Assembly: GCA_021827145.1 (NCBI GenBank)
Contig: JAKAXK010000001.1
Location: forward strand, 9,006-73,005
Source: Pseudomonadota bacterium
GTDB taxonomy: Bacteria; Pseudomonadota; Gammaproteobacteria; Acidiferrobacterales; Acidiferrobacteraceae
Reading direction: 5' to 3'
Length of the DNA stretch: 64,000 nt
Shown: in pieces, positions 1,910-36,918 of the stretch
Position numbering within the stretch: position 1 is the first letter of the stretch
How the letters are laid out: each line of letters starts with the position of its first letter
The notes under the pieces: generated by a model
What the model was told of the DNA's origin: nothing
The model's database searches: none
What the model saw: only the letters and a program-made list of their open reading frames with translations
Translations under genes and position numbers: made by a program

Positions 1910-2119
1910 ATGAAAGCCGATATCCATCCCGAATACCAGACCATCGCGGTCACATGCGCGTGCGGGAACGTCTTCAAGACAGGTTCCACGCTCGGCCATG
2001 ACTTGGCCGTCGAAGTCTGCTCCGCTTGCCATCCGTTCTACACGGGCAAGCAAAAGATCGTCGACAGCACCGGACGCGTCGAGAAGTTCCGCCAGAAGTA
2101 CGGTCTGCGCAGCAAGTAG
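1910..2119 (+). CDS. rpmE: 50S ribosomal protein L31
   Basis: 'MKADIHPEY...C.CG......[11 protein letters not shown]' is the canonical L31 sequence. I chose the internal ATG at 1910 rather than the ORF-track start. Confidence 0.95.
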
Positions 2120-2132
2120 ACACGGACTCGGT

Positions 2133-3395: not shown

Positions 3396-3528
3396 TCGTG
3401 GCGGCGCCACCATCCCCTATGGACGCGATGTCGTGGCGGATCGGCCATGACGACACATCCCGTCAGGGAGGCCCGACCCCGACCCCGACCCCGGATCCGG
3501 CTGCCGTGCACCGGGAACAAGGGCACCC

Positions 3529-4945: not shown

Positions 4946-6652
4946 TCAAGGGCGCGCAGCGGCCGGCGGTCCTCCGCCGTCGCTTCGGGCAGCGTAGAGC
5001 CCATCTATGGCCGCCTGGTAGCGCTCCTCTATCCATTGGCGCCGGACCTTTAGGGTGGGCGTCAGAAAGCCGTTTTCGATCGTCCAAGGGCCGTTGACGC
5101 GCAGCACATGGCGGATCCGGGTGTATCCCGGAAAGGCGTGGAGTTGCGCGTTGGCGCGATCACAGAGAAGCGTTTCATCCTCTATGTCGCTCACCGCCAA
5201 CAGCGCCAAGGCACCACGTCCCTCCCCCACTACCAACGCCTGTTCGAAGGCGTGGTCCTGAAGGATGGCCTGCTCGACATCGGCGGGCGCGACCTTTTCC
5301 CCGTTCGAGAGGACGATTATGTCCTTGGCCCGCCCGGTGAGATACAAGAGACCATTCTCGAGGCGCCCGAGGTCCCCGGTGTGGAGGAAACCCTCGGCAT
5401 CGATCACCTCGGCGGTAGCCTCGAGCTGATTCCAGTACCCTCGCATGATGCTCGCGCCCTTGACGCAAATCTCGTCGTCCAGAAAACGCAGGGTAAGGTT
5501 CGCAAGCGGCCGGCCCACGGAGGCCAAATCGCGATCGGCTAAGTGCAGGCAACTAATCACGGGCGCGGTCTCGGTAAGCCCGTATCCCTGCAGGAAACGC
5601 AGGCCCAAGCCCGTGAAGTAGGCGAGCAGCCGTGGTGACGCCGGGGCGCCCCCCAGGAACACGTAGCGCAGCCTTCCCCCCAGACGGCGCCGTACTGCGC
5701 GACCGACCACGGCATCATAGAGCCAGGCGGACAGCCGTTCGAGCCCGCGAGCCCGTCCCTCGAAGACCGCCAAGCCCGCCGCGGAGGCGCGCGCCACGAG
5801 CTGCTCCCGTCGCGGCGACCTCTTCATCTCCTCCTGCATCTTGGCGTAAGTCCGCTCGAAGATCTTAGGCACGCTCACGAGGATGGTCGGCCGCATACTC
5901 GCGAGATCCGCCGCCAGCTCGGTGATACCACGCGCGAACACGGTCTCGGCCCCCATGGCCACGGCCACGAATTCCCCGACAGTGCGCTCGAGCATGTGCG
6001 ACAAGGGCAGGAACGACAAAAAGCGGTGCGACTCCACGGCGATCTCGGGGATGGCCGCCAACAAGGCGCCGACATTGGCGAGTATATTCCGGTGAGTCAG
6101 CATCACCCCTTTGGGGCGGCCCGTGGTCCCCGAGGTGTAGACGATGGTCGCGAGATCATCCGGATCCGGGTCATGTACCGATGGACGCGCCTTACGACCG
6201 GCCGCCAACCACTCGCCGAAAGGGAGGACGCCACGCACTTCCTTGAAACTCACGATGCCCTGGAGTCCGCAGGCGAGGATTTCGGGGGCCGGCGCCCGAT
6301 CGACGAACAACCAGCGCACACCGGCATCTTTCAGACAATAGGCGATGTTCTCCGGTCGGTCATTAAAGAACAAGGGCACGACCGTAAGGCCCAAGGACAG
6401 CGCCGCAATGTCGCAGAACACCCACTCTGGAGCGTTGTAGGCGCAGATGCCCACGCGATCCCCGGGGGAAAGCCCGCTCGCCGCGAAGGCCGCGCGCACG
6501 CGCGCGACCTCACGCGCGGCCTCGCCCCAGCTCCAGGCGCGCCACCTTCGGCCATCATAACCGCGGTAGGCCGGCTCATCGGGGGTCGTGGCAATGCGGC
6601 GGGCGAACAGCTCGCCCAGCGTAGCCGGGGCATTCGGCATGGCATTCCTCAT
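4946..6652 (-). CDS. AMP-dependent acyl-CoA synthetase (long-chain fatty acid-CoA ligase type)
   Basis: The AMP-binding motif 'IVYTSGTTGRPKGV' is present, along with 'GYGLTE' and 'TGD'. The start ATG 6652 forms an ATGA overlap with the upstream stop. Confidence 0.85.
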   Translation of the reverse strand: MRNAMPNAPATLGELFARRIATTPDEPAYRGYDGRRWRAWSWGEAAREVARVRAAFAASGLSPGDRVGICAYNAPEWVFCDIAALSLGLTVVPLFFNDRPENIAYCLKDAGVRWLFVDRAPAPEILACGLQGIVSFKEVRGVLPFGEWLAAGRKARPSVHDPDPDDLATIVYTSGTTGRPKGVMLTHRNILANVGALLAAIPEIAVESHRFLSFLPLSHMLERTVGEFVAVAMGAETVFARGITELAADLASMRPTILVSVPKIFERTYAKMQEEMKRSPRREQLVARASAAGLAVFEGRARGLERLSAWLYDAVVGRAVRRRLGGRLRYVFLGGAPASPRLLAYFTGLGLRFLQGYGLTETAPVISCLHLADRDLASVGRPLANLTLRFLDDEICVKGASIMRGYWNQLEATAEVIDAEGFLHTGDLGRLENGLLYLTGRAKDIIVLSNGEKVAPADVEQAILQDHAFEQALVVGEGRGALALLAVSDIEDETLLCDRANAQLHAFPGYTRIRHVLRVNGPWTIENGFLTPTLKVRRQWIEERYQAAIDGLYAARSDGGGPPAAARP

Positions 6653-8673
6653 AGGTTCGTAGAGCGACGTGCGAGGAGGTCTCCTTGCGACCACGCCTCG
6701 TCGGGTGTGAAGCGCGGTCCATGGCGCTGGGTCAATTCCAAAAGCCGCGCGTGCACCTCGGCCACCCCCAGAGCGGCGGCATAGCCCAAGGGCCCACCGC
6801 GAAACGGCGCGAAGCCCGTGCCATAAACAAGGCCAATATCCACCATGTCGGCATCAGCCACGATGCCTAGGCGCAGACAGCGTGCCGCCTCGTTCACGAG
6901 CCGCATGATGAGCCGCTCGCCCAAGGCGGAGTCGGGGGCCGGTCGTCGCCGCAGCGAAAAACGCTGCGGGCGAGGGTAGCGATAGAAGCCCTGACCGGAC
7001 TTCTTTCCGAGGGCGCCGGCCTCGACCTTGCGCGCGAGCAACGCCGGGACCGGTATGTCGAGCGCCGCGCCCAGGGTCTGCGCCACGGCGAGACACACAT
7101 CGAGCCCAACGGTGTCGGCCAAGGCGATCGGCCCCATCGGCATGCCGAAATCGGTGGCCGCATCGTCGATATCCGTGAGCGCCACACCCTCCTCCGCAAG
7201 GGTGATGGCCTCGAGCAGATAAGGCATGAGGGCGCGGTTGACGAGAAAGCCGGGCGAGCTTTTGACGTCCACGGGCAAGCGATCGAGACCGACAGCGAGG
7301 CTGCGCATGGCGGCCAGCGTCGCGGGCGTGGTCGCGGTCCCGCCGATCACCTCGATCAGAGGCATCTTGGCCACGGGGTTGAAGAAATGCAGCCCGACGA
7401 GGCGTCCGGGGACAGCCAGCCCCACGGCGAGTTCGTCCAGGGGCAGACTGGAGGTGTTGGTGGCCATGATCGTGCGCTCCGCGACCTGCGCCTCGATCTG
7501 CGCAAAGAGCGCGCGTTTGGCATCGCGATCCTCGACGATGGCCTCTATGACGAGATCGGCCCGCGACAAGGCGCCGCCGCGCATGTCCGGCATCAGCCGG
7601 TCGCGCGCGGCCTCCGCGGCGCGGCCCTTCAGGCGCTCGGCGAAGAGTCCGTGGGCCTTCTTGATGGCGCGTGCGAGCACCTCCGGCGCGCGATCCTGGA
7701 GACTCACCTGGAAGCCTTTGAGGGCCGCCCACGCCGCAATGTCGGCACCCATCACGCCGGCGCCCACCACATGCACGCGCCGGATCCCGTGGACATGTTC
7801 CCGGGCGCGCCGCTTCAGGTCCTCCGACACTTCGAATAAATGCACGAGATGGCGGCTCGCAGGGGTCATGAGCATCTCGGCGCACGACAGGGCCTCGGTC
7901 TCGAAGGGGGCTTGGCGCGTCCATAAAGATACGATGCGGCAAGGGGCCGGATAGTGACGGCAGTCGACCTTTGCCTTGAGCCGCCGCTGCATGAACGCGC
8001 CCAGGTAAGGCCGCAGTAACGGCGTCCCGGCCCAGGCCTGGCGCCAGGGCGGGCGCGCCTTCGGCGGCACATCGCGCACGAACACGCGGGCGGCGGTGTC
8101 CAGGTGACGCGCGGGCACACAGGCGTCCACGAGCCCGAGGCTGCGGGCGCGGCGCCCCGACACGGCGCGCCCGCCGAGCATCAGGGACAGCGCCGGCAAG
8201 GCCCCGATCAAGGTCGGCAGCCGCACGGTCCCACCGAAACCCGGGTGGATGCCGAGCTTGACCTCGGGCAGGGCAAGACTCGTGTGCTCATCGTCGCAGG
8301 CGATACGGTAGCTGCAGGCGAGCGCCAGCTCGAGGCCGCCGCCAAGGCACGGTCCATGGATGACCGCCACCGACGGATAGGGAAGGCGGGACAAGCGCTC
8401 AAGCACCATCTGACCCGCGCGCGTGAGTTCAGCCGCGCGGGCGGCATCGAGAATACGACGAAATTCGTGGACGTCGGCGCCGACCACAAAACTCTCAGGC
8501 TTACCCGACCGGATGAGCAGCCCGCGTGCGGATCGCGTCTCGAGATCGGCAAGCACCTGATCGAGATCGCCCAAGACCTCGCTCGACAGCACATTGTGAC
8601 GTCGGCCCGGCACATCCAAGACGAGCTCGACGATGTCGTCCTGCTCCGAAATTGTCCAATTCTTGCCGGTCAT
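6649..8673 (-). CDS. bifunctional enoyl-CoA hydratase / 3-hydroxyacyl-CoA dehydrogenase (FadB/FadJ type)
   Basis: An N-terminal crotonase fold is followed by the NAD-binding 'VHVVGAGVMGADIA' and the HCDH C-terminal region. The start ATG 8673 forms an ATGA overlap with the thiolase stop. The ORF-track N-terminal extension was discarded. Confidence 0.85.
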   Translation of the reverse strand: MTGKNWTISEQDDIVELVLDVPGRRHNVLSSEVLGDLDQVLADLETRSARGLLIRSGKPESFVVGADVHEFRRILDAARAAELTRAGQMVLERLSRLPYPSVAVIHGPCLGGGLELALACSYRIACDDEHTSLALPEVKLGIHPGFGGTVRLPTLIGALPALSLMLGGRAVSGRRARSLGLVDACVPARHLDTAARVFVRDVPPKARPPWRQAWAGTPLLRPYLGAFMQRRLKAKVDCRHYPAPCRIVSLWTRQAPFETEALSCAEMLMTPASRHLVHLFEVSEDLKRRAREHVHGIRRVHVVGAGVMGADIAAWAALKGFQVSLQDRAPEVLARAIKKAHGLFAERLKGRAAEAARDRLMPDMRGGALSRADLVIEAIVEDRDAKRALFAQIEAQVAERTIMATNTSSLPLDELAVGLAVPGRLVGLHFFNPVAKMPLIEVIGGTATTPATLAAMRSLAVGLDRLPVDVKSSPGFLVNRALMPYLLEAITLAEEGVALTDIDDAATDFGMPMGPIALADTVGLDVCLAVAQTLGAALDIPVPALLARKVEAGALGKKSGQGFYRYPRPQRFSLRRRPAPDSALGERLIMRLVNEAARCLRLGIVADADMVDIGLVYGTGFAPFRGGPLGYAAALGVAEVHARLLELTQRHGPRFTPDEAWSQGDLLARRSTNL

Positions 8674-9962
8674 GATGCGCCACCTCCCCGTATGAGCATG
8701 GCCCCTCCCTGGCCGCCGCCGATGCATAAGGTCGCAAGCCCGAACGCCCCCGGTTGGTCGCGCAAGGAGCGCGCCAGATGCAAGACCAGCCGCGCGCCGG
8801 TGGCGCCGACCGGATGGCCGAGGGCCACCGCGCCGCCATGGGGATTCAGGCGCGCGGGGTCGATCGCGCCCAAGGGGGCATCGAGCCCGAGCTCTTCCTT
8901 GGCGTAGGCCGGGCTCGCGAACGCGGCCTGGCAAGCCAGCACCTGCGCGCTGAACGCTTCATTGAGCTCCACATGACGCAAATCCTCGATACTCAAACCG
9001 TGCGCGTGCAGGAGCTTGGCGGTGGCATGTACAGGCCCGAGCCCCATCTGCGCGGGGTCTACGCCCGCCCAGGCGTGATCCACGATCTCGGCCAACACCG
9101 GCAGCCGTCGGCGCTGCACCATGGCCTCGCTCGCCAGCAGGACGACGGCCGCGCCGTCTGTGATCTGCGAGCTGTTGCCCGAGGTCACGCCCCCGAAACG
9201 CCGATCAAAGACGGGTTTCAGCCGCCCGAGCTTCTCGAGGTCGGTGTCCGGCCGCACTCCGTCGTCTTGGCCATAGCTCTCGCCGCGCGACCCATACAGA
9301 GGCTCGACCTCATCCCGCAAGAGCCCATCGGCCTGACTGGCCGCCACCCGCTGATGACTCTGCAAGGCGTAACTGTCCTGGGCAAGCCGTTCTATATGAA
9401 AGCGGTGCGCGACAATCTCGGCGGTCTGCCCCATGGAGAGAGACACCACCGGGTCGCGCAAGCCGAGCAGCAGCGAGAAGACCGGGCGTAAGTGGCCCAG
9501 GCGAAAATCCGCCAGCGCGCGCAGGCGTCGGGCCGGGGTCTTGGCGCGATACAGGCGCGCCAGCCACCGGCTCATGGCCATATTCCACTGGATGGGGGCA
9601 CGGCTCATGGCCTCGGTGCCACCGGCCAACACCAGATGGGCGCGCCCGGCCCGAATGTCGTCGTAAGCGCTTGCTACCGCCTGCAGCCCGGAGGCGCAGT
9701 TGCGCTGGACCGTGTAGGCCGGAACCGCGAAACCCGTGCCGACCCGCAGACCCACGATGCGTGCGATATTGGCCTCGTCGGGGGCGGCGATGACACAACC
9801 CAATATCACTTGGTCGAGATCCTCGGCATCAAAGGGTTGACGCGCCAAAAGGGCGCGCGTAGCCGCCACCGCGAGATCCGCGGCGCTGAAGGGCCCAGGC
9901 TCGTCGCGCACCTTCAGGAATGGCGTGCGTGCGCCATCAACGATAAACACCCTGGCAGTCAT
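8670..9962 (-). CDS. acetyl-CoA C-acyltransferase (3-ketoacyl-CoA thiolase)
   Basis: Thiolase signatures are 'NCASGLQAV', 'NPHGGAVALGHPVGATGAR' and 'CIGGGQG'. The start forms an ATGA overlap with the upstream giant gene. Confidence 0.9.
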   Translation of the reverse strand: MTARVFIVDGARTPFLKVRDEPGPFSAADLAVAATRALLARQPFDAEDLDQVILGCVIAAPDEANIARIVGLRVGTGFAVPAYTVQRNCASGLQAVASAYDDIRAGRAHLVLAGGTEAMSRAPIQWNMAMSRWLARLYRAKTPARRLRALADFRLGHLRPVFSLLLGLRDPVVSLSMGQTAEIVAHRFHIERLAQDSYALQSHQRVAASQADGLLRDEVEPLYGSRGESYGQDDGVRPDTDLEKLGRLKPVFDRRFGGVTSGNSSQITDGAAVVLLASEAMVQRRRLPVLAEIVDHAWAGVDPAQMGLGPVHATAKLLHAHGLSIEDLRHVELNEAFSAQVLACQAAFASPAYAKEELGLDAPLGAIDPARLNPHGGAVALGHPVGATGARLVLHLARSLRDQPGAFGLATLCIGGGQGGAMLIRGGGAS

Positions 9963-12900
9963 GTCGCCTCCTCCGTCCCCATCGGCGCGAGTGCCGTCAA
10001 CAAGACATCGACCCAGACCCGCACCTCACCCACACAACGTACCACCGGCCGCGCCCCCGGCCGCGTGTTGAAGATCGGCGCCTCCGGGTCACGATTGATG
10101 GCGACGATCTGGGTCTCGGGCGCGATACCGGCCAAGTGCTGCGGGGCCCCGGAGACGCCCAACGCGAACAATAATCGCGGTGCCACCTGGAGTCCGGTCT
10201 GCCCGATCTGATGCTCAGACGACAATATCCCGTTCTCCTGCACGCACCTGCGGGTCGCACCGAATGCCACCTCGCATCCCATCATAGCCGAGAGCCGCGA
10301 TTTAAGCCTCATCAACCCCCTCTCGAAGAAAGCGGGGTCGGCCCCGCCATAGCCGACATCGATCACCACCTCGGCGGCGGCGAGACCCGTGGCGCGGTGC
10401 CTCTGCAGGGCACGCGCCAGCCCCCCCGGGCGTACGCAGGAGGGCGTCCAATCCTCCACGATACAGGTTCCCTCGCGCCCTGCCGTGCCCGTCGCGCGCA
10501 CAGAGAGGCCCGCCACCAGGACCGCGTGGTCGGGGCAGGGACTCAGCCATACATTTCCCCCGCGCGCACAGACCAGATCCCCACCCTGGCAGGCGACGAC
10601 ATCCATGAAGAGCGGGCGACCGAGATGTGCGGCCAAGGCGCCGGCGAGCGCCGCGTATTCGGGCCCGAGCACAATATGGGGGGCTGGAGCCAGATGCTCG
10701 GCAAGCAGGGCCACGCAAGACGCCGCAGCCGCCGGCGTAATCAGCCGAAAGAGCGGTGTATCCAAACCCTCGGGCGGTGCATCGCCGCGGTCTTGCGCGA
10801 GCCACACCCCGCCCACCGCAGGTCCGAGACTGTGTGCCAGCGCCCCCGGACCCCGTCCGAGTGCCCCGGAGCCTGTCACTGCCATCACCGGCGCGAGCCT
10901 GGCGGTGCCGGCGACTACGCGCGCCGCTTCGACCGGCGTGCCCCCGATCTGCGCGAAGACCCACGCCGCAAGATCCTCGGGCCTTTCCATCACGGCCGGC
11001 GCGGTGGGGGTGGTGGGTGCCTCGGGGCCGGCGGCCACCGAGACGGATGCGAGCCGCTGTTCGTCCGGGGGACTCTGCAGGGCCTCGATCCAATCGGCGA
11101 TCGCAAAGTCGTCGCTGCGGCCGGTGGCGTCAAAGCGGCCGGATGCCAGGAGCGTGCGCCCATAGCCCGCGCGTACGCGCGCACCGTGGGCGCGTCTGAC
11201 GATGTAGCCCCGACGGTCCGCCCCCGCGCAGGCCGCCACACCGTCGATGAACGGGGCACCCAAGGCCCCGGCCAAGGCCGCCAGAAAGGTCGGTTCCTGG
11301 GGACCTGCGAGTATCAGCGCGGGCCCAAGCGGCGCGAGCAGACGGGCCACGGCTGCGGGGTCCGCCAGGCCGCCGGTGGTCACGGCCAGCGGATGGGCGC
11401 CAGCGGCGCGCAGCCGTTGCACGACATCCGGACACGCCGTGGCGGTCAAGACCAGGGTTGTAAGACGCAGCGCGGGCGTGCGGTCACGGGCCTCCAAGGC
11501 CTGATCAAGCGCGGCGCGGTCGCCACGATCCAGGCGGATATCGGCGCCATCGGGATGCGCAATGTCCCGCAGAAGCACGATGATGTGGCCGCCGAGGCCG
11601 TGAAGCGCGGGCACCGGTCGGGCACGCCGATCGGCGCGGCGATGGGCAAGCGCCACCACCGCCTCCTCGTAGGCCGCGCCCACACCGAACAAGGCGGTAA
11701 GGGCGCGCACGCGGGTGGCGACACCCGCCTCGCAGTCAGACTCGAGGGCCCGCAAGGGGGCCAGAAAGCGTTCATCGGCGCCCCGGAAGGCCAGCGCCAA
11801 GCGCCGTTCGACGAGCGCCACCCAAACATACAGCTCGCCCACCCAGTCGACCACGGGAAACCAGAGGATCTGGGCGTCACCGTCGCTGCCTACGCGCGCC
11901 TTGAGCTCGGCGACACGCGGGCGCATGAAATCCGCGAATGTCCGCAAGGCCCGATCGAGGGCCGGACTTTGCGTTGCGCCAGCCTGCGCGAATCGCGCGC
12001 AAAGCGGCGCGAGATCCTTCAATACAAGGAAGCGTTGAATCTCGTTGGTGCCCTCGTAAATATTGAGGATGCGGGCGTCGCGCCGCCACTTCTCGATCGG
12101 CTCCGACACCGCCGCCGCCTGCGGACCATGGGCGCGCTCGAGCGCGAGCAGCACACGATGGAGGCCCTCGGAGGCCAGGAACTTGGAAAGCGCCGCCTCG
12201 ATGCGGAAATCCCCACGGCGCAGATCGGCGCGATCCATGAGGCCTACGAGGCGCGCGCCCAAGGTCCGCACCCGCTCGTATTCGGAGCGCGCCACCCTCG
12301 CCACCTCGGAGTCGGCGGCGAAGCGATCCCCGTAATCCTCGAGCAGGCGCTCGAGGAGGTTCGCGGCTCCGACCACGAGCCCGCCACGACCCACGCTTAA
12401 GGTCTCCAGGGCACTGACCTGCCCGTGGCCTTCGAAGCCTATAATGCGGCTTACGCACACGCGCACCGACGATAAGACCAGCTCATTGGTGGGCGAGGCC
12501 CGCTGGCCGAGTTTGCGCTCGTCGCGCCCGACCGCGAATCCCTCGCAGCGGCGCTCGACCATGAACCCGGTCTCGCCCCCCGGCGTCTGGGCGTACAGAC
12601 AGTAACGATCGGCGATCGAGCCGTTCGTGATCCACATCTTCGCGCCCGACAATTCGAAGTACTCGTAGACTGGACCGCCCGGACCGTCCACCGGCACGCC
12701 CCGGTCGTCGTAGTCATACATGACTCCGGAGTCCAACAGCACACGGCGGCGGCCCTGCCCGGTATCCCAGGCGCTGTCGTCGAACCGCGCCAAGGCGCCG
12801 TCCGGGAGGCGGTAATGGACCCCGGTATCCGTAAATTCGATGCGCCGCTCATCCAGCAAAATCCGCGGTCCCTGCGGCGTGCCGAAGCGCCAGAGGCCGG

Positions 12901-15900
12901 CGGCGTCGGGTGTAAGCGACGCGCGGGCGGGGCGCGCGCGGGTGGTGACCGCCCCGGTATCCGAACCGGCCGAGGGTTCGGTGAGCGCAAACGCGCTGAT
13001 CTCGCGGTGCGCCAAAAACCGCAGGAAGCGTTCATGGGCCGCTAGGCGTGCGGGCAGGCGCGACCGCTCCTCGGCCAGTCGTGCGGCAAACCGCGTAAGG
13101 CCTTCCTGCAGGAGCTGGGCGCGGGCGGCAAGACCATCCAGGTCACGGGCGCGGGCGGTGGCCACCAAGGTCTCGAAATCGCCGAGCAGATCGCGGGCCA
13201 GATACTTCAACACTGATCCAGGTTTCAGGAAACGCGTCTTCACAAGCGCCGCCATGGCCTCGAGGGTCTTCTTGATGGCCATCGAGCGCGGCCGCTCGCT
13301 CAAGGCGCGCAGCCTGGCCGCCGCGCGACGCAGTTCCTCGAGCGCACCCTCCGGGTGGTCGCCGAGCTCCTCGACAAGCCGCGGGATGTCCTTTTGCAGG
13401 GCCAGCAACACCGGCATGGTGCCGATGCTGGTGCTCGCCATGACCAAGAGGCCCACCGACGGGTCGACACGGCCCATGAGGAGGCCCGCGAGGACCGCGT
13501 ATTCGGCCTTACTGAGTCCGCGCCCGCCCAGATTCTCGGGGATCACGGTGGCAAAGGCCTGGAAGTCCTTCAGGCGCTCGACATCGGGGGCCGGCACCGC
13601 ATGATGCGCATCGATGGAACGGCCATACACTTTGCCCCCAGGGTCCCGGAAACCACGGCGCACGAAACGCAAGACCTGTGCGCGCATACGCCGCAGAGCG
13701 GGATCGGCGCGAAAGTCCTCCGGCACGAACACCTCGGTTGCCCCCAGAATCTCGCCGGACAGAAAGGCGCCGCTGCGATACGCAAAAGGCGCGGTCGCGC
13801 GCGGCGTGGTCTGCAGACGGCCCGCAACCACGGGCGCGGCACTCGGGCGCGGGTTCTCGAAGAAACCGTGGCGCAAAAACAGGGCCGCCTGTGCATCGTC
13901 GGGCTCCGTCCACAAGGCCCGTTCCCAGACGCCATGGGCGCGCCCGTCGAGACCCGCCGGCCACTGCGCGAGCACCATGGCGTCGCGGTAGCGATGACTG
14001 AGGATATCGTCCTCGGAGTAGGCGATGCCCCCGAACACCTGACCCGCGCACCAGGCGACACCGTCCTGAGACACACCGAAGCGTTCCTGGAGGAGCGCAA
14101 CCACGGCGCGCGGTTCGCGATCGCACCAAGCGCGGAGCCGATGAGCGAGCTGAAGTGCGTACTCGATGACCGCGAGCAGACGCTTGACCGCGCCGAACTT
14201 GATCACCGCGTCCGCACCGTCGTGATCGCGATAGCCGCCGGCGAACTGAACGCGCGAGCGGGCATGGGCCTCGGCACGGGCCCCGAGCGCCTCCCCATAT
14301 CCTTCCATGAGCGCGATCAAATAGCGGGCGAATACAGCATCGACAAGAAACGGTGCGCGGCGCGCGGCGGGAACGCGTACGCAGCGAGCGACGTCGAGAC
14401 CGACCGCCCGTTGCGCGCCCGCGGTCTTCAACGGCGCGGCGCCCTTCCCCCCATGGGCGCCAACGTCCGGAAACCACGCGGATAAACGGTCGGACTCGCG
14501 ACAGAGGTCGGCGCTCAGACGCGCAAGACGCTGGCCACGCCGGCCCTCAGCGAGCAGGTGATGCATGGCGACGAAGCCCAGTCCGGTGTCATGCTCGGCC
14601 AAGGCCGCCAGCACATCCTCGGGGCGCGCTTGGCGACGGTGCAGGAATCGCACGAGATCATCGCGATCATCCTCGCCCCACGCCTCGGCCATGGCCGCCA
14701 TACGCGAAACCGGAAAGAGCGCGGCCGCCGCCTCGCGCAGGGCGCGTCTGGTGTTCGCTTCGAGGTCGGCACAGCGCGCGCTTGGGCGTACTCGAGGAAG
14801 GCATCCCAACAGCGCGTCATGCACGGCCCCGTGCGCACCGCGGTCCCACAGCCGCAGCAGACGCTCGAGGTCTGGCGGACACGCGGCGATCAAGGCCTCG
14901 CGCATCGTCGCCCGAAACGCCGGGCCGGGCGCTACCGGCCGCGCGGCGATGGCGCGCGCGAGGGCCCGCAAGGTCTTATCCTCCGGCACGGCGGCGGGAC
15001 TCACGACGAGGTCGCAGGCCACACTTCCATCAAGTTCGAAACGTTTGGCCTCTGGGAGCTCGTAGATGAGCCCGTGACCGTCGGTGCGGCGCCAATCCAT
15101 GGTCGGGACCATGATCCGGCAGGATTCGCATTTTATGCAATTCTCGAACGTGGCCCACGCGCCGCCGGCCGCACCCCCCGGTTGATAGACCTCGGCGGGG
15201 CAGACGCGGCGCAAGCGCGCGGCGGCGGCCTTCGGAAGGTCGCGCGGGACATGGATGTGGCGCCGCTCCGGCAGCGGACGCCCCAAGGGGGCGAGCCATG
15301 CCATGGGGGAATCGGCGGGACTGCCATCGAACGCCAGACGCGCCCGCGCGGCGCGTTCGGCGCGATAAAATGACTCGTCCTTGAGACGCGAGCGCCCGGC
15401 GGCCATCACGACGGCCGCGTCGGTCATAAAACTTAAGGTCCCGGACGCGGTCAGGGCCGCGCCGCGCGCCAACGCCCGCACCGCGAGCGATCGCACCCGC
15501 TCCGGTATGGCCGCGGCGAGACGGGTCTCCAGCAAAGGTAAGGAACGGCCGTAGAAATACCCCAGACCGCGGGCCAGCGCGGAGAGCAAGGACCCACCGC
15601 CGTCGACCGGCGCGAGGCGACCGCCCGCGCCGCGCAAAAAGGTCACGGCCAGCGGCGGCGTGTCGGTGGGGGCCGCTGTGCGCGGCACAGAGGCGACCGT
15701 CGCGAGCGTGGCGCGATCACGCAGGACGGACAGGGCGGCGCGCGCGCAGGCCCGCCCGTGCGCCGCGCGGCCGGCCATGACCGAGCCCACCAGCGCTGGG
15801 AGATGTTCGAAAAGGAGCGGGCTTGCGTGCAGGGCCTCGGGCCAAGCGGCGGCGAAACGGGCGTTTTGATAGTCGACGCTCTGGCGCAGCCGGCCCCCAT

Positions 15901-16960
15901 AGGACGCGGCCAGGGCCGCCGCCGAATAATCGGCGCGCCCGCGCAGATCGAGCACCGCGTCGGCAAAGGCCACCCCCGACAGGGCCGCCGGTCCCATGAA
16001 ATTCGGATAGGGAAATTCGAGCCCGAGGCCCAGGGAGGCGCCTCCCACGGCGAGCCCGTCATAAACGCCCACCACCCCTTCGCGGAGGCCCCCCGACCGT
16101 ATCACCTTGGCCCCATAGGCCACCTGGGTGGCGCCCTCGAGCAAAGCCGCGATCTCCGGCAGGCGCAGAAAGCGCCGCAAGAGCTGGGGATGGTCGACGG
16201 GGCTCGCCTCGGCGAGAGGTTCGAGCGGGAGCACGAGCCCCACCGACACGCTGGCGCGATTCGTGTACACGAAACCCGTGGCGTCCAAAGGCACGGTGCG
16301 CCCCTTCCAGACGCCGTTGCGCAGCAACCATTCCTGGGCGACCCCCTCGCCCGCGCCAACGCCAAATCGGGCCTCGATGTCGGCGGCAGGCAGCGCGAAG
16401 ACCGCCTTGATCCCCTGGGCATAATGCACGACCGGCCGCTCGAGACCGGCACGCGCGAGCAGGCCCGCGGCATCGCCCTCGGCCAGGAACACAATAGGCG
16501 CCTCGACGGGTCCGCGGGCGGTGTCGACCCCGACCACCCGTCCGCCGCGAAATCGCAAGCCCGTGGCCGCGGTGCGCGGCAAGAGCGTAGCCCCGCTGGC
16601 GATGGCGCGACTCGCCAGATAGCGATCCAATCGGGGACGTAGTACGGTCCAGGCCTCGCCGTAATCGTTACCCGTCACCGCCCGCGCCTCGAATCCGGCG
16701 CAGCCGTCACCCCCGTGGACGAATAGCGAGCGTCCGACGATGCGCCGTTCACGCGGCGCGCGGTCCCATGCACGGACGCCCAGGACGTCGTCGCGCAACA
16801 GGGGTTCGGCGTGATAGACACCACCCGACCAATTCTCCGCGCCGGCGAATTCCGCGCCCTCGAGCACCAGCACGCGCACACCGGCGCGCGCGAGCCGCAA
16901 GGCCGCGCTTATACCGGCCGGCCCCGCGCCTACGATCACCACCTCGGGTCCCTGGCCCAT
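9959..16960 (-). CDS. giant (~2333 aa) fusion protein: FixC-like FAD oxidoreductase + FixX-like ferredoxin + ACAD-like module + full acyl-CoA dehydrogenase + EtfB-like + EtfA-like
   Basis: The start ATG 16960 is preceded by AGGAGG (16964-16969). The FAD motif is 'VVIVGAGPAGISAA'. 'FENCIKCESCRIM' lies at ~15110-15150. 'VFGGIAYSEDDILSHRYRDA' lies at ~14000. 'FALTEPSAGSD' lies at ~12970. 'MWITNG' is also present. 'ILNIYEGTNEIQR' lies at ~12040. The EtfA C-terminal 'QIGQTGLQVAPRLLFALGVSGAPQH' lies at ~10180. Confidence 0.8.
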   Translation of the reverse strand: MGQGPEVVIVGAGPAGISAALRLARAGVRVLVLEGAEFAGAENWSGGVYHAEPLLRDDVLGVRAWDRAPRERRIVGRSLFVHGGDGCAGFEARAVTGNDYGEAWTVLRPRLDRYLASRAIASGATLLPRTAATGLRFRGGRVVGVDTARGPVEAPIVFLAEGDAAGLLARAGLERPVVHYAQGIKAVFALPAADIEARFGVGAGEGVAQEWLLRNGVWKGRTVPLDATGFVYTNRASVSVGLVLPLEPLAEASPVDHPQLLRRFLRLPEIAALLEGATQVAYGAKVIRSGGLREGVVGVYDGLAVGGASLGLGLEFPYPNFMGPAALSGVAFADAVLDLRGRADYSAAALAASYGGRLRQSVDYQNARFAAAWPEALHASPLLFEHLPALVGSVMAGRAAHGRACARAALSVLRDRATLATVASVPRTAAPTDTPPLAVTFLRGAGGRLAPVDGGGSLLSALARGLGYFYGRSLPLLETRLAAAIPERVRSLAVRALARGAALTASGTLSFMTDAAVVMAAGRSRLKDESFYRAERAARARLAFDGSPADSPMAWLAPLGRPLPERRHIHVPRDLPKAAAARLRRVCPAEVYQPGGAAGGAWATFENCIKCESCRIMVPTMDWRRTDGHGLIYELPEAKRFELDGSVACDLVVSPAAVPEDKTLRALARAIAARPVAPGPAFRATMREALIAACPPDLERLLRLWDRGAHGAVHDALLGCLPRVRPSARCADLEANTRRALREAAAALFPVSRMAAMAEAWGEDDRDDLVRFLHRRQARPEDVLAALAEHDTGLGFVAMHHLLAEGRRGQRLARLSADLCRESDRLSAWFPDVGAHGGKGAAPLKTAGAQRAVGLDVARCVRVPAARRAPFLVDAVFARYLIALMEGYGEALGARAEAHARSRVQFAGGYRDHDGADAVIKFGAVKRLLAVIEYALQLAHRLRAWCDREPRAVVALLQERFGVSQDGVAWCAGQVFGGIAYSEDDILSHRYRDAMVLAQWPAGLDGRAHGVWERALWTEPDDAQAALFLRHGFFENPRPSAAPVVAGRLQTTPRATAPFAYRSGAFLSGEILGATEVFVPEDFRADPALRRMRAQVLRFVRRGFRDPGGKVYGRSIDAHHAVPAPDVERLKDFQAFATVIPENLGGRGLSKAEYAVLAGLLMGRVDPSVGLLVMASTSIGTMPVLLALQKDIPRLVEELGDHPEGALEELRRAAARLRALSERPRSMAIKKTLEAMAALVKTRFLKPGSVLKYLARDLLGDFETLVATARARDLDGLAARAQLLQEGLTRFAARLAEERSRLPARLAAHERFLRFLAHREISAFALTEPSAGSDTGAVTTRARPARASLTPDAAGLWRFGTPQGPRILLDERRIEFTDTGVHYRLPDGALARFDDSAWDTGQGRRRVLLDSGVMYDYDDRGVPVDGPGGPVYEYFELSGAKMWITNGSIADRYCLYAQTPGGETGFMVERRCEGFAVGRDERKLGQRASPTNELVLSSVRVCVSRIIGFEGHGQVSALETLSVGRGGLVVGAANLLERLLEDYGDRFAADSEVARVARSEYERVRTLGARLVGLMDRADLRRGDFRIEAALSKFLASEGLHRVLLALERAHGPQAAAVSEPIEKWRRDARILNIYEGTNEIQRFLVLKDLAPLCARFAQAGATQSPALDRALRTFADFMRPRVAELKARVGSDGDAQILWFPVVDWVGELYVWVALVERRLALAFRGADERFLAPLRALESDCEAGVATRVRALTALFGVGAAYEEAVVALAHRRADRRARPVPALHGLGGHIIVLLRDIAHPDGADIRLDRGDRAALDQALEARDRTPALRLTTLVLTATACPDVVQRLRAAGAHPLAVTTGGLADPAAVARLLAPLGPALILAGPQEPTFLAALAGALGAPFIDGVAACAGADRRGYIVRRAHGARVRAGYGRTLLASGRFDATGRSDDFAIADWIEALQSPPDEQRLASVSVAAGPEAPTTPTAPAVMERPEDLAAWVFAQIGGTPVEAARVVAGTARLAPVMAVTGSGALGRGPGALAHSLGPAVGGVWLAQDRGDAPPEGLDTPLFRLITPAAAASCVALLAEHLAPAPHIVLGPEYAALAGALAAHLGRPLFMDVVACQGGDLVCARGGNVWLSPCPDHAVLVAGLSVRATGTAGREGTCIVEDWTPSCVRPGGLARALQRHRATGLAAAEVVIDVGYGGADPAFFERGLMRLKSRLSAMMGCEVAFGATRRCVQENGILSSEHQIGQTGLQVAPRLLFALGVSGAPQHLAGIAPETQIVAINRDPEAPIFNTRPGARPVVRCVGEVRVWVDVLLTALAPMGTEEAT

Positions 16961-17214
16961 ACGTCCTCCTGCCTCCAGTATAGACGCGGTCGCGACCCAC
17001 CATAGCGCGATGCGTCTTCTCGGCAGCCCCCGGCGCCCGGGCAGCGCGCCACCAACGGCCGGCGCCAAGCGCCAACCCACGTGACCGCCTCCGGGCCCGA
17101 CGGTCTCGGTGAGGGGCGCGGTCCCGAACGCCGTGCCGGACCCGCGGCTTGTGTCGGATGAGGACCTACGGCAATGGCGCTAATCTCGGACGCGAGATCC
17201 GCACGGAGGACATC

Positions 17215-18171
17215 ATGCCTGGAACAGCGACCCCGCAAGACGCGCGCAATCCCATCATCGCCATCAATATGGCGCGGATCGCGAACCGCCCGGAGAGCTA
17301 CGAGACGATGCGCAAGGTGGGGCCCAAGGTGTGCATCACGACCGCGACCCATCCAGGCTTCCTGGGCTTCGACCAGTTGCTGCAGGTCGGCATACACCCG
17401 ATGGCGGGGCGCTACGGTGGCGGCGCCCTCGATATGCGCGAGACGCTGAACCCGATTGGGATGTTTCAATACACGGTGTGGAAGGACGCGCGATCGCACG
17501 AGGAGATGCATTATCTCCAGTTCGATACCATCTACGAGCTCTGCTCCCACTGTCTCGCGATGGTGGTCGAAGGCCCGTGGGAGCCACTGTACGAGATCCC
17601 GGCCTCGGACCTGCCACCCTCGATCGGACTCACAGATGTGCCGGGGCTCATGATGGGGCGGGCGGCTGCGCAGAGGCCCGTGCCCAAGCTCGCCTTACCC
17701 AATCGCGTGATAGCCCTCGGCGATCATAGCGTGATGCATGGCCACGAGGAGGATTTCGAGCAAGGGGTGCGCGCCACCATGGACTGGCTCATGGCACATG
17801 CCCCCGGCATGCTCGGATGGATGCTTTTGAAACAGGTCGGGGTGTCGGCAATTGGGTCGTTTCAGCTCGACCCCGAAGGTATGACCAAAGCGACGCTCGG
17901 GGCCAATCCTCCGAAATACGCCACCAATTACGGCGACAAGCCCCTGGACCACCCGCCGATCCCACCGGCCACACCCGCCCAATACTTCGTGCACATGGAG
18001 TGGGAGGCCGCGGAGCTCGCCCACCAGGGTCTGGGCAAGGTGCTTGTCAATATCGACGCACGCCACATCCACGACCAGGGCGTACTTGCCCATATCAACC
18101 GCGGCCCCTACTACATGCTGTTCGCCTCCATGATGGAGGAGGGTACGTGGCGGGACCATCTCGTTCGCTAG
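17215..18171 (+). CDS. sor: sulfur oxygenase/reductase
   Basis: It is collinear with archaeal and bacterial SOR along the full length as I recall them. Shared segments include 'INMA', 'VGPKVC..TA.HPGF', 'W.D...HEEMH', 'LC.HC' and 'GPWEPLYEI'. A GGAGGA RBS precedes ATG 17215. Confidence 0.9.
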   Translation: MPGTATPQDARNPIIAINMARIANRPESYETMRKVGPKVCITTATHPGFLGFDQLLQVGIHPMAGRYGGGALDMRETLNPIGMFQYTVWKDARSHEEMHYLQFDTIYELCSHCLAMVVEGPWEPLYEIPASDLPPSIGLTDVPGLMMGRAAAQRPVPKLALPNRVIALGDHSVMHGHEEDFEQGVRATMDWLMAHAPGMLGWMLLKQVGVSAIGSFQLDPEGMTKATLGANPPKYATNYGDKPLDHPPIPPATPAQYFVHMEWEAAELAHQGLGKVLVNIDARHIHDQGVLAHINRGPYYMLFASMMEEGTWRDHLVR

Positions 18172-18181
18172 GAGATCCGAC

Positions 18182-19459
18182 ATGACATCGAACAAACCCC
18201 ATGTTCTTGTGCTCGGCGGCAACTTCGCGGGACTCGCGAGTGCCCAAAAGATCCGTGAATACGCGGGCGACGCGGTCGATATCACCGTGATCGACCGTAA
18301 TCCCTACCTCCTCTTCATACCCAACATCCCGGCCGAGGTCTTCGAGGGCCGCGACCCGGCGATGACACTCAAGATGGACAGCTCGCGGGCCTTGAGTGAT
18401 GCGCAGGCGACCTTTATCCAGGGCGAAGTACAGGCCATCAACCCCGACACCCGGACCGTCGACTTCATACCCGGGGAGCGCCAGGGCGCACCCTCCGAGA
18501 CGATAGGCTACGACTACCTCGTCATCGCCTTCGGCTGCCGGCTCGCCTATGACAAGATTCCGGGTTTCGCGCAACACGCGCACGCGGCCTCCGACACCTT
18601 TTACGGCAACAAACTGCGCCGCGTGCTCTTTGGGGGCCAATACAAAGGCGGCCCCATTGCGGTCGGTTCGGCGCGTTTCCATCAGGGCACGGCCGTCAAG
18701 GACCTCGTGCCGATGGCGGACGCCGCCTGTGAGGGGCCACCGGTCGAGATCATGTTGTCCATGGCGACCTGGCTCAAGAACCACGGGCTCGGGGGCCCCG
18801 ACAAGATCACGGTGTTCACGCCCGGCAAGATGATTGCCGAGGATGCCGGGGAACAGGTCGTCAATTCGCTGCTGGGCATCGCAAGCCAGATGGGATTCCA
18901 CTACCGTAACAACGTGGGAGACATCGCCGAGGTCACACGGGACGGCGTGCGGTTTACGCAGGGGGATACGCTGGAGGCAGAGCTCAAGATCCTGCTTCCG
19001 GACTGGGTGCCGCACCCCTTCATGAAGGGGCTGCCCATAAGTGACGAAGAAGGCTTCGTGATCACCGATATGTTCATGCGCAACCCCAAGTACCCTGAGA
19101 TCCTGGCCTGCGGGGACGCGGCCGCGGTCACCGTGCCCAAGCTCGGCGCCATAGGACACCAGGAGAGCGAGATCGTGGGCCGACAGATCGCCCGGGACCT
19201 CGGACGCATAGGCGAAGCGGCCGCCTCGGAACCCTTGAAGCCGGTCGTGTATTGCATCGGGGACATGGGCGACAAGCAGGCGTTCTACATTCGCTCCAAT
19301 GCCTGGTACGGCGGCGACACGCAGGTCTTGAAGATGGGGCGGGTGCCGTATCTGTTGAAGATGCAGTACAAGGACCTCTTTTTCCGGACCCAGGGAAAAA
19401 TCCCGCCCTGGGGTCTGGATGCGGCGCAGTTCCTCGCCGAACGCCTGTTCGCGGCCTGA
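18182..19459 (+). CDS. sqr: sulfide:quinone oxidoreductase-like FAD-dependent disulfide oxidoreductase
   Basis: The N-terminal FAD fold is 'HVLVLGGNFAGLASA'. Cys-containing segments 'AACEGPPVE' and 'VVYCIGDMG' sit where SQR redox cysteines lie. The SQR subtype is not assignable by eye. Confidence 0.7.
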   Translation: MTSNKPHVLVLGGNFAGLASAQKIREYAGDAVDITVIDRNPYLLFIPNIPAEVFEGRDPAMTLKMDSSRALSDAQATFIQGEVQAINPDTRTVDFIPGERQGAPSETIGYDYLVIAFGCRLAYDKIPGFAQHAHAASDTFYGNKLRRVLFGGQYKGGPIAVGSARFHQGTAVKDLVPMADAACEGPPVEIMLSMATWLKNHGLGGPDKITVFTPGKMIAEDAGEQVVNSLLGIASQMGFHYRNNVGDIAEVTRDGVRFTQGDTLEAELKILLPDWVPHPFMKGLPISDEEGFVITDMFMRNPKYPEILACGDAAAVTVPKLGAIGHQESEIVGRQIARDLGRIGEAAASEPLKPVVYCIGDMGDKQAFYIRSNAWYGGDTQVLKMGRVPYLLKMQYKDLFFRTQGKIPPWGLDAAQFLAERLFAA

Positions 19460-19462
19460 GTC

Positions 19463-20662
19463 GTGAGTGGACCCCCACCCGAGACCGATCCGCAAGAGGC
19501 CACCCGGATTCCCGCTGATACCGCCGCGCTGAGCGCGCGTCAGTGGCGGGCCCTGGCGTGCATGGCGGAGCGTTACGCGGCCCTCGAGGACGCCTCGAAC
19601 GGCCCCCTGGGCGACGTCGCGGGCGAGGCCATGCGCAAGGCCTCGGGCCTCTGGCACGGTCACGATCTCCCGACACTCACCGGTGAAATCCTGCAGGCGG
19701 CCGAGGCGCTCCGCGACGCCGGGGTCTTCGCGGCGATCCGCGACGGCGCGCAACCCGCGAAGGAGGCCCTGGGGCGCACCATCGATGCCGAGGCCCTAAA
19801 AGAGATAGGCACCGCGGCCCTGGCACTGCGCGATGAATGGCGTACGGTGCAGCGGCTTAGCGCGCGTCTGCGGGCGTTAGAGACGTGGGTCGAGAGCCCC
19901 ACGGCGGGGGCGCTGGCGGACGCCTGGGCACGATGGCTCGAGGCGACGCGGGATACCGAGTTGACAAGGCTCGGGCGCGACCTCCTGCGCATCTTGGAGA
20001 CCCTCTCCCGAAGCGGCGCGCTCGCGCGACTTGCCGACGACCTGCCCGCTCTGATCGATACCGTGGCGCATCTGGCACACATGGCACCCGCGCTGCTCGA
20101 GGCGGCAGGCCCACTGCTCAACCAGGCCCGCATGGACCTCGCCTTCGCGCACAAGCTCGCAGACCGGGGTCGTAACGTGGCCGAAATCTGGAAAGGGCCG
20201 ACGGGAGAGGCGCTTTCGCGCGCCGCCACCGAACTCAGCGCCTGGGCTGCCGAACACAATGTCGCCGGACTCGCCCAGGAAATAACCGCGCTTCTCGCCA
20301 CCCTTCGCGACGCCGGACTGTTCCCCGCTGTACGCGAGGCGGGCCTTGCGCTCACGGGCCTTGCCTCGTCGTGGCGGCGCGTACAGGCCGCGGCCAGCGC
20401 CGATGGCCACGCCATCAAGGACATTTCCGCGGCGGCCGGAGAAACGCTCGACCGCTGGCGGCATCTGCGCGCGGGGCTCGCCGATGGACAGGGCGATTCA
20501 CCGGGGGGCATCAAGGGACTCTACCATCTCCTCAGGGATCCCCGCGTACAGGATGGTCTCCGCCAGGGCGCACTTCTGCTGTCGGGCTTGATGGGCGCGC
20601 CGCCCGAAAAAACGCAGGCAACGCACATTCATGGGCAGGGGCGCGGCGGCGCCGAATCTTGA
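19463..20662 (+). CDS. DUF1641-domain protein with internal helical repeats
   Basis: The C-terminal 'GGIKGLYHLLRDPRVQDGLRQGALLLSGL' resembles the DUF1641 signature. Similar 'L..LRDAG.F.A.R' units recur upstream. The GTG start lies 4 nt after the sqr stop. Confidence 0.55.
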   Translation: MSGPPPETDPQEATRIPADTAALSARQWRALACMAERYAALEDASNGPLGDVAGEAMRKASGLWHGHDLPTLTGEILQAAEALRDAGVFAAIRDGAQPAKEALGRTIDAEALKEIGTAALALRDEWRTVQRLSARLRALETWVESPTAGALADAWARWLEATRDTELTRLGRDLLRILETLSRSGALARLADDLPALIDTVAHLAHMAPALLEAAGPLLNQARMDLAFAHKLADRGRNVAEIWKGPTGEALSRAATELSAWAAEHNVAGLAQEITALLATLRDAGLFPAVREAGLALTGLASSWRRVQAAASADGHAIKDISAAAGETLDRWRHLRAGLADGQGDSPGGIKGLYHLLRDPRVQDGLRQGALLLSGLMGAPPEKTQATHIHGQGRGGAES

Positions 20663-33882: not shown

Positions 33883-34076
33883 ATCCAACGGGTCGGCCCC
33901 GGTCTCGAGACCTTGGCTGCTTTTCGCTGCTTACCCGTCTTATGCTCGGAAGTTAAGGGCAGCACTCTGTTGTACAGGCGAATCCGTGTCGATGGATCAG
34001 TAGGTCGTCCCGCCCGCACCAAGGTGCTGACGATGGATTTGGGACATCCGCGCCCACCTGCTTCCTGGGACGTCCT

Positions 34077-35222: not shown

Positions 35223-35224
35223 GG

Positions 35225-36916: not shown

Positions 36917-36918
36917 TT

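Follow-up and report, generated by a model that had tools for sequence, protein, structure and literature searches.

A single polypeptide that joins an acyl-CoA dehydrogenase (ACAD), an electron transfer flavoprotein (ETF) and a putative quinone reductase of the ETF-quinone oxidoreductase (ETF-QO) type is encoded in a 64,000-nt stretch of contig JAKAXK010000001.1 from a member of the Acidiferrobacteraceae (assembly GCA_021827145.1); this whole stretch is called the window below. The 2333-aa protein contains, in order, a FixC/ETF-QO flavoprotein, a FixX-like four-cysteine module, a degenerate ACAD, a complete ACAD apparently of the VLCAD class, EtfB and the whole of EtfA. Its conserved sequence signatures make it probable that the protein is a self-contained acyl-CoA:quinone oxidoreductase carrying out the first oxidative step of the beta-oxidation operon that its gene heads. 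The parts and their chemistry are known; what appears to be new is their assembly in one chain, with a predicted dead ACAD partner and an ETF base that seems to have lost its nucleotide. The gene and its modules lie as follows, with the evidence for each module in brackets.

9959–16960, minus strand: giant fusion gene, 2333 aa, ATG at 16958–16960 and stop codon at 9959–9961
16965–16970, minus strand: Shine–Dalgarno sequence AGGAGG, 4 nt 5′ of the ATG (from the sequence)
15761–16960, minus strand: residues 1–400, FixC/ETF-QO-type FAD flavoprotein, putative quinone reductase (NCBIfam, PDB)
15266–15760, minus strand: residues 401–565, poorly conserved insertion between FixC and FixX with a hydrophobic helix at ~500–520 (Kyte–Doolittle, conservation)
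15011–15265, minus strand: residues 566–650, FixX/ETF-QO-type ferredoxin-like module, C587-P-A...C608-x-x-C611-x-x-C614 (invariant Cys, PDB, Pfam)
13946–14710, minus strand: residues 751–1005, degenerate ACAD, here called pseudo-ACAD (HHalign, invariants, model secondary structure)
12011–13705, minus strand: residues 1086–1650, catalytic ACAD with SAFALTEPSAGSD, KMWITNG and IYEGTNEIQ, the last containing E1636 (Pfam, HHalign, PDB, Foldseek)
11606–12010, minus strand: residues 1651–1785, helical extension leading into EtfB (models, Foldseek, profile)
10931–11593, minus strand: residues 1790–2010, EtfB-like module (ETF domain III and arm) with a short adenylate loop (profile against PDB, Foldseek)
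10391–10930, minus strand: residues 2011–2190, EtfA domain I, poorly conserved (profile, model, Foldseek)
9962–10390, minus strand: residues 2191–2333, EtfA domain II, the FAD-binding head (Pfam, alignment, invariants)

The minus-strand frame runs without interruption from a GTG at 17080 to the stop codon, and the ATG at 16960 is its supported start. The closest homologue (P0001, from Acidiferrobacter sp., 89% identity) is likewise 2333 aa long and has the N-terminus MGQGPEVV. A preliminary description of this DNA had proposed one uninterrupted 2333-aa frame at 9959–16960, which the frame, the ATG and this homologue bear out; the strong AGGAGG ribosome-binding site that it reported is also present, but its coordinates (16964–16969) were one base off. 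With a GC content of ~70% in the gene, stop codons are expected at ~0.019 per codon, and by our own estimate the chance probability of ~2370 stop-free codons is near 1e-20; the frame is therefore not a chance event.

The same architecture recurs in databases. A search of 5.8 billion proteins at E < 1e-10 gave 325 matches, the best 120 of which we examined; all statements below on invariant or conserved residues refer to these best 120 of 325 homologues and to a 37-sequence alignment, which is collinear end to end. Almost all of the 120 are 2266–2705 aa long, their Pfam domain sets are identical, and P0001–P0056 (41–89% identity) each align to the query in a single BLAST alignment over 100% of its length. 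They come from Acidiferrobacter, other Acidiferrobacterales and Gammaproteobacteria, Nitrospirota, Leptospirillia, Verrucomicrobiae and Betaproteobacteria. In sequences that are otherwise 30–45% identical, the invariant positions are the cofactor and catalytic signatures of FixC, of the four-cysteine module, of both ACADs and of the EtfA head.

This family also bears on the reading of the long open reading frame (ORF) as an artefact, that is, as a decaying pseudogene or as adjacent fixCX, acd and etfBA genes fused by a frameshift or misassembly. DNA of ~70% GC often contains long spurious ORFs, such as one of 729 aa on the opposite strand here. However, more than 100 full-length homologues of 30–89% identity, from independent NCBI, ENA, JGI and Logan assemblies, are free of frame breaks, and representatives of up to 2880 aa cover residues 6 to ~2324 in unchanged order. 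A contig of 132,906 bp in the databases carries the identical sequence, and the catalytic residues are invariant. Because the fusion is reproduced at full length and collinearly in over 100 independent sequences down to 30% identity, we regard a frameshift or assembly artefact as effectively excluded.

Searches with profiles, predicted structures and folds confirmed all six modules named in the preliminary description, and their order; for some of them a single sequence gave too little signal, and profiles were needed where Pfam searches with the single segments 700–1100, 1650–1900 and 1880–2130 gave no match. At the N-terminus, described beforehand as a FixC-type FAD oxidoreductase, the NCBIfam models PRK10015 (9e-45, residues 7–396) and FixC (1e-37) both match, under their full-length cut-offs. 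Among solved structures 7koe_C matches best, reaching 1e-32 from the sequence alone and 1e-53 when the family profile is used; ETF-QO from pig (2gmh_A) scores 1e-6. The Rossmann signature G11-x-G13-x-x-G16...E34 is invariant. The FixX-like Cys motif that follows the insertion holds up equally well: C587, C608, C611 and C614 are invariant, residues 585–634 match 7koe_D (0.0038), and the Pfam family Fer4_ETF_QO matches weakly in the window protein (0.016, 15.8 bits, under the cut-off of 24) and above the cut-off in homologue P0072 (3e-7, 30.9 bits). Since only one set of four cysteines is conserved, one [4Fe-4S] cluster is predicted.

The centre of the protein holds two ACAD modules of very different completeness. 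The catalytic one aligns with positions 23–384 of a generic ACAD profile (385 columns, built from fetched loci) at an HHalign E-value of 6.9e-55, has Pfam ACAD_N, ACAD_M and ACAD_C each over the cut-off, and shows the three-domain ACAD fold, with Foldseek TMt values of ~0.8 to short ACADs. Its IYEGTNEIQ motif, including E1636, is invariant and aligns with the generic IYEGTsEIQ. The full ACAD of the preliminary description thus stands, but its single large insertion is in fact two (~1193–1310 and ~1344–1432). PDB and Foldseek searches match the module to VLCAD, ACAD9 and 3owa; the extension forms three long helices in both models, the whole-protein profile extends to residue 551 of 3owa, and the ACAD together with the extension gives TMt values of 0.71–0.76 over ~760–800 columns against VLCAD, ACAD9, 3owa and 2z1q. 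On sequence and model evidence, we assign it to the VLCAD class of ACADs with a C-terminal helical extension.

Upstream of it, the module described beforehand as partial, ACAD-like and helical gave no Pfam match in a single-segment search, and was identified by aligning residues 881–1004 with positions 249–372 of the generic ACAD profile, which are its C-terminal domain (HHalign probability 97.3%, E 2.5e-11). Its model has a helical N-terminal part, a vestigial beta part of short, low-confidence strands and a C-terminal alpha domain. The catalytic glutamate and a full beta domain are missing, with WPA or WPG at the YEG position. Other ACAD motifs are kept and invariant: R903-V-Q905-F906, and G973-Q974-x-F-G977-G978-x-A-Y followed by R992-D993. 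As judged from these motifs, the module that had been called partial is a catalytically dead partner.

Among three ACAD motifs, each module lacks those that the other keeps. The catalytic ACAD has only YEG, its R-x-Q-F-G being deleted (YGDRFA----ADSEV) and its Q-x-x-G-G-x-G-Y replaced (ERAHGPQAAA), and the pseudo-ACAD has only R-x-Q-F-G and Q-x-x-G-G-x-G-Y. These complementary losses account for the weak score of the family-internal HHalign comparison between the two modules (E only 0.14). In the MCAD structure of Kim et al. (1993), FAD is reportedly contacted in trans by the R-x-x-F-G arginine and by the glutamine and glycine of Q-x-x-G-G. An AlphaFold model of residues 745–1795 has a pLDDT of 83.7 and a pTM of 0.86, and such a pTM over 1051 residues indicates that pseudo-ACAD, catalytic ACAD and extension are predicted to pack in a defined way. 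Given the complementary losses and the pTM of the combined model, the simplest reading, which the motifs, the model and analogy together suggest, is that the two modules pair within the chain as a pseudo-heterodimer that has a single FAD and a single active site. In the analogous mycobacterial alpha2beta2 ACADs, the alpha subunit provides the isoalloxazine site, catalytic Glu and substrate site; contact with the ADP-ribose of that FAD comes from the beta subunit (PMC11153573).

The C-terminal part is an ETF whose base and head are conserved very differently. Segment profiles identified the EtfB-like segment of the preliminary description against PDB EtfB chains at 7.5e-21 to 3e-16 (4kpu_B 7.5e-21, 6fah_B 7.8e-21, 1o94_C 7e-18 and 1efv_B 3.7e-17), and Foldseek agrees (1o94_C 7e-7; TMt 0.48–0.55), as does Pfam ETF (PF01012), which is above the cut-off in homologues. 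A whole-protein profile had no EtfB chain among the best 60 PDB matches listed, which were ACAD chains instead. EtfA is complete, as had been proposed, with domains I and II both present: its profile spans residues 20–314 of human ETF-alpha (1efv_A) at 3.6e-35, and domain II matches Pfam ETF_alpha at 6.7e-17. In the head, R2237, QIGQTG at 2251–2256 (with T2255), SGAPQH at 2270–2275 and N2289-x-D2291 are invariant, and the human FAD site is matched residue for residue (GATRR for GASRA, QIGQTG for QVGQTG and SGAPQH for SGAIQH). The AlphaFold model of residues 1650–2333 has a pLDDT of 82.1.

Outside the head, conservation falls away. G1886 is the sole invariant EtfB residue, and from 1887 to 2195, a range that takes in the latter half of EtfB together with the entire domain I of EtfA, conservation stays below 90% at every position. 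Every solved EtfB chain has an adenylate-binding loop of the pattern G[RK]QAIDxDxxQ[VT]G, such as GRQAIDGDTAQVG in 4kpu_B and GKQAIDDDCNQTG in human EtfB; the fusion family does not conserve this loop, and the window protein has a 5-residue deletion there (ILAGPQ-----EPTF). According to a study of Sulfolobus ETF (PMC12042025), AMP is bound by this loop in canonical ETFs, and in bifurcating ETFs the loop holds the second FAD by its AMP half. Because the loop has decayed, the base formed by EtfB and EtfA domain I appears from its sequence to be a scaffold only, without a conserved nucleotide site, and the ETF module would have a single flavin.

The giant gene heads a four-gene operon whose other members are as follows.

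8670–9962, minus strand: gene 2, thiolase, 430 aa (Pfam Thiolase_N/C; NCBIfam PRK08170)
6649–8673, minus strand: gene 3, FadB/FadJ-like enoyl-CoA hydratase/3-hydroxyacyl-CoA dehydrogenase, 674 aa (Pfam ECH_1, 3HCDH_N, 3HCDH)
4946–6652, minus strand: gene 4, AMP-forming acyl-CoA ligase, ~568 aa (Pfam AMP-binding)

At all three junctions the next ATG overlaps the preceding TGA (ATGA), and by its sequence the operon is a translationally coupled beta-oxidation operon. The thiolase scores 633.7 bits with PRK08170, above the cut-off of 593; NCBIfam matches of gene 3 to FadJ (1e-155) and of gene 4 to long-chain-fatty-acid-CoA ligase and to a FadD11-like model are under their cut-offs. The four-gene order is kept in two Acidiferrobacterales assemblies, L004 and L005, whose giant proteins are 42% and 50% identical to that of the window. 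A promoter and terminator scan of the operon gave nothing above shuffled expectation.

Several neighbouring genes were noted alongside. The operon has a gene for malic enzyme in its vicinity in the window (1998–3392, plus strand) and also in L005 (24711–25976), which suggests wider synteny around it within the order. The beta-oxidation genes are flanked by a 309-aa ORF (3466–4392, minus strand) with no Pfam match. Divergent from the giant gene is a sulfur oxygenase reductase gene (17149–18168, plus strand; Pfam SOR 1e-127; NCBIfam SulOxRed 270 bits, under the cut-off of 400), followed by a pyridine-nucleotide-disulfide oxidoreductase with a weak likeness to type III sulfide:quinone reductase (18182–19456, plus strand); both fit a sulfur-oxidising Acidiferrobacter. 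A 399-aa ORF flanking these sulfur genes (19463–20659, plus strand) has no Pfam or NCBIfam match.

Taken together, the modules predict the following electron path. A long-chain acyl-CoA would be dehydrogenated at the FAD of the VLCAD-class ACAD module, with E1636 as the catalytic base, and the pseudo-ACAD would probably replace the second subunit of an ACAD dimer, completing the ADP-ribose side of the FAD site in trans. From the ACAD flavin, electrons would move one by one, first to the FAD in the tethered head (EtfA domain II), then to the only [4Fe-4S] cluster, in the FixX-like module, and on to the FAD of the FixC/ETF-QO-like module, which would reduce membrane quinone. The predicted cofactors are three FAD and one [4Fe-4S] cluster, with neither AMP nor a bifurcating FAD. 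The preliminary description had likewise proposed that the whole path from acyl-CoA to quinone runs within one chain; strict conservation of the cofactor and catalytic signatures, together with a conserved and coupled operon, supports this proposal, the activity itself being predicted from them.

Two other functions have to be weighed against an acyl-CoA:quinone oxidoreductase. Bifurcating systems supply the nearest solved structures for the FixC part (7koe) and for the EtfB part (4kpu_B and 6fah_B), and the protein might be an enzyme of the FixABCX or Bcd-EtfAB type that bifurcates or confurcates electrons within one chain. A second FAD, in the EtfB/EtfA base, would then oxidise NADH, with the electrons split between quinone or enoyl-CoA and ferredoxin or flavodoxin, which might provide low-potential electrons in autotrophs. 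Many hosts, among the Nitrospirota and Leptospirillia, are indeed autotrophs using the reductive tricarboxylic acid cycle, with the gene outside any beta-oxidation neighbourhood; 7koe_C is the FixC of the bifurcating Thermotoga maritima EtfABCX; and the EtfB module is slightly closer to 4kpu_B and 6fah_B (~8e-21) than to the canonical 1o94_C and 1efv_B. A similar idea was raised in the Nitrospina genome paper, which speculated that ETF genes supply low-potential electrons (PMC3578206). Yet the loop that would anchor the AMP half of a bifurcating FAD is not conserved and is shortened by five residues in the window protein, and no residue at the bifurcating-flavin region, at the interface of domains I and III, reaches 90% conservation, while the electron-transfer FAD site is invariant. 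This degenerate loop argues, at the level of sequence, against a bifurcating ETF; only one four-cysteine cluster is conserved, no ferredoxin or flavodoxin gene lies nearby, and the operon is one of plain beta-oxidation. We therefore consider bifurcation very unlikely.

The same architecture could instead act on a thioester other than a fatty acyl-CoA (acyl-CoAs that are branched, aromatic-derived or made from signal molecules are examples), or run as an enoyl-CoA reductase, and so not be a general FadE equivalent. Such a role would suit the two family-specific ACAD insertions and the lithoautotrophic hosts, and NCBIfam models for acryloyl-CoA reductase and cyclohexane-1-carbonyl-CoA dehydrogenase score about as well as FadE, all far under their cut-offs. 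A detoxifying role is also conceivable, the fatty-acid signals DSF/BDSF being toxic to Acidiferrobacter (PMC8357829). Against this stand the operon partners, which are a generic thiolase, a bifunctional enzyme of the FadB/J type and a ligase of the long-chain type, and the nearest structures, VLCAD, ACAD9 and 3owa, all long-chain enzymes. On general thermodynamic grounds, enoyl-CoA reduction by quinol would also be unfavourable with ubiquinone. A different substrate or direction is in our judgement unlikely, and a long-chain acyl-CoA:quinone oxidoreductase is the function that we favour.

Several observations nevertheless weigh against this favoured function, beyond the bifurcating relatives already mentioned. 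The host is a chemolithoautotroph, in which a need for beta-oxidation is puzzling. In Nitrospirota, Leptospirillia and Verrucomicrobia the giant gene stands alone among housekeeping genes, without beta-oxidation neighbours, and the operon argument is consequently limited to the Acidiferrobacterales clade. The putative quinone-binding assignment draws on homology to FixC/ETF-QO and on a sub-threshold match to Pfam ETFQO_UQ-bd (residues 229–287, E 0.014, 16.3 bits against a cut-off of 27.7). The helix at ~500–520 is a possible membrane anchor, but a weak one in the window protein, where the Kyte–Doolittle 19-mer maximum of the insertion is 1.26; homologues from Nitrospirota, Verrucomicrobia and Betaproteobacteria (P0060–P0120) reach transmembrane-like values of 2.0–2.9, and membrane attachment may thus differ between clades, with a weak helix in the Acidiferrobacter clade. 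Finally, the pseudo-heterodimer geometry is a prediction, and the roles in trans FAD binding assigned to R-x-Q-F-G and Q-x-x-G-G (R281′, Q349′ and G353′ in MCAD) are presumed.

The family is rare and conserved, and apparently unstudied. When the family-specific region, residues 660–1090, was searched against 1.84 billion representative proteins, 57 proteins matched at E ≤ 0.001 and 38 at E ≤ 1e-10; 20 proteins are 1888–2880 aa long, and among 51 that were mapped the long ones are collinear from residue 6 to ~2324. Within these representative proteins, the pseudo-ACAD module was met only inside this architecture. Short matches to the module were considered as natural split forms and rejected; they are collinear pieces with arbitrary ends, many lacking Met, and are probably contig-end fragments. 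The database record of the exact window protein has no name, and its relatives are labelled ‘FAD-dependent oxidoreductase’ or ‘FAD-binding protein’. Full-text literature searches found no paper describing the fusion.

A contig scan with the patterns YEGTNE[VI]Q and ALTEPxAGSD picked up ordinary ACADs; among the matches listed only L006, L007 and L008 belong to the family. Because its patterns matched ordinary ACADs (at least 600 matches), the scan has no bearing on taxonomic breadth. Two apparent sub-fusions were also rejected: L033 has separate acd, etfB and etfA genes and L052 has tandem ACAD genes, in both cases joined by tblastn. As a separate observation, in L030, L034, L058, L061, L065 and L079, from Clostridia, Fusobacteria and Brachyspira, ~1.17 kb of DNA matches query residues 1433–2299; these loci could be short ACADs fused to an EtfA head domain, or the same kind of tblastn joining artefact as in L033 and L052. 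A butyryl-CoA reductase containing EtfA domain II is mentioned in the Sulfolobus ETF paper (PMC12042025).

What is understood of electron transfer from ACAD through the mobile flavin domain of ETF to ETF-QO still comes largely from short-lived complexes between individual proteins. With its fixed stoichiometry and its three redox partners held together, a natural single-chain form would be attractive for cryo-EM and kinetics of the whole relay, and would offer a compact module for the engineering of acyl-CoA oxidation coupled to quinone. Two evolutionary simplifications would be captured in it: an ETF without its structural nucleotide site, and an ACAD homodimer turned into a live/dead pair in cis, parallel to the two-gene alpha2beta2 ACADs of mycobacteria. 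Several hundred entries labelled ‘FAD-dependent oxidoreductase’ or ‘acyl-CoA dehydrogenase family protein’ could receive a specific predicted role, and a further implication is that acidophilic lithoautotrophs, Acidiferrobacter among them, are capable of beta-oxidation. A fuller proposal is in our view evenly balanced. It holds that this is a natural, possibly monomeric, single-chain acyl-CoA:quinone oxidoreductase and so a new enzyme type in class 1.3.5.-, with an ETF that is not diffusible but a tethered swinging head on a nucleotide-free scaffold, with a live and a dead copy that together restore the ACAD dimer in cis, and with the protein as the organism's complete path from acyl-CoA to the quinone pool in those clades (Nitrospirota, Leptospirillia and Verrucomicrobia) whose gene has no operon partners.

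Elsewhere in the window, an island at ~34000–39000 has a GC content of 55–60%, compared with ~65% elsewhere, and may have been horizontally acquired; it contains a DprA-like gene (35228–36916), a gene for a HAD-hydrolase/phosphoribosyltransferase fusion (36922–38178) and a 381-aa ORF with no Pfam match (34080–35222). An IS66-family transposase, complete in its four Pfam domains, is encoded at 53952–55538 (minus strand). The gene at 23558–25171 (minus strand) has a weak match (8e-9) to the DNA-binding domain of TrwB/type IV coupling proteins and adjoins one for an AsmA-family protein (21537–23495, minus strand).

Among known systems, the ACAD, ETF (EtfA/EtfB) and ETF-QO relay of mitochondria and proteobacteria has the same four catalytic modules as the fusion and the same cofactor-binding signatures, namely the YEG Glu of ACAD, equivalents of ETF-alpha R249, T266 and SGAIQH, and the Rossmann fold and four cysteines of ETF-QO; its context is likewise beta-oxidation. 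The fusion differs in being one polypeptide with a fixed order, in an ETF base without a conserved AMP loop, in an internal dead copy that would replace the ACAD partner subunit, and in an ETF-QO part of the split FixC plus FixX type, with a 165-residue insertion between the halves. FixABCX/EtfABCX of T. maritima (7koe), a bifurcating NADH:quinone and ferredoxin oxidoreductase, contains the nearest relatives of known structure for the N-terminal flavoprotein and the Cys motif, and its EtfA and EtfB are matched as well. It consists, however, of four separate subunits without an ACAD, and the fusion lacks a conserved bifurcating-FAD site; EtfX has two clusters, as against the one four-cysteine set conserved in the fusion. 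VLCAD, ACAD9 and the Bacillus 3owa type, the best Foldseek and sequence matches of the ACAD, share its core and extra C-terminal helical domain; unlike the fusion, they are ~590-aa homodimers that use free ETF, and VLCAD-type long ACADs retain their own R-x-Q-F-G and Q-x-x-G-G motifs, the consensus of which is visible in the generic ACAD profile.

Closer in design are the mycobacterial alpha2beta2 ACADs (ChsE4–ChsE5, ChsE1–ChsE2 and IpdE1–IpdE2), which divide labour between a live and a non-catalytic paralogue (PMC11153573), a complementarity that the motif losses in the fusion mirror; they are encoded by two genes and both of their subunits are full-size, whereas the presumed beta partner of the fusion is shrunken (~255 aa) and in cis. 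The ETF of Sulfolobus acidocaldarius, SaETF, places EtfB before EtfA in one chain, as the fusion does, but it is an ETF only, a monomer that bifurcates with two FADs and works with ACAD or FixCX partners encoded separately nearby (PMC12042025). In the passages covered, the neighbourhood survey of that paper mentions no fusion with ACAD and FixCX. This EtfB–EtfA fusion and the two-gene alpha2beta2 ACADs are the closest published items to the protein encoded in the window.

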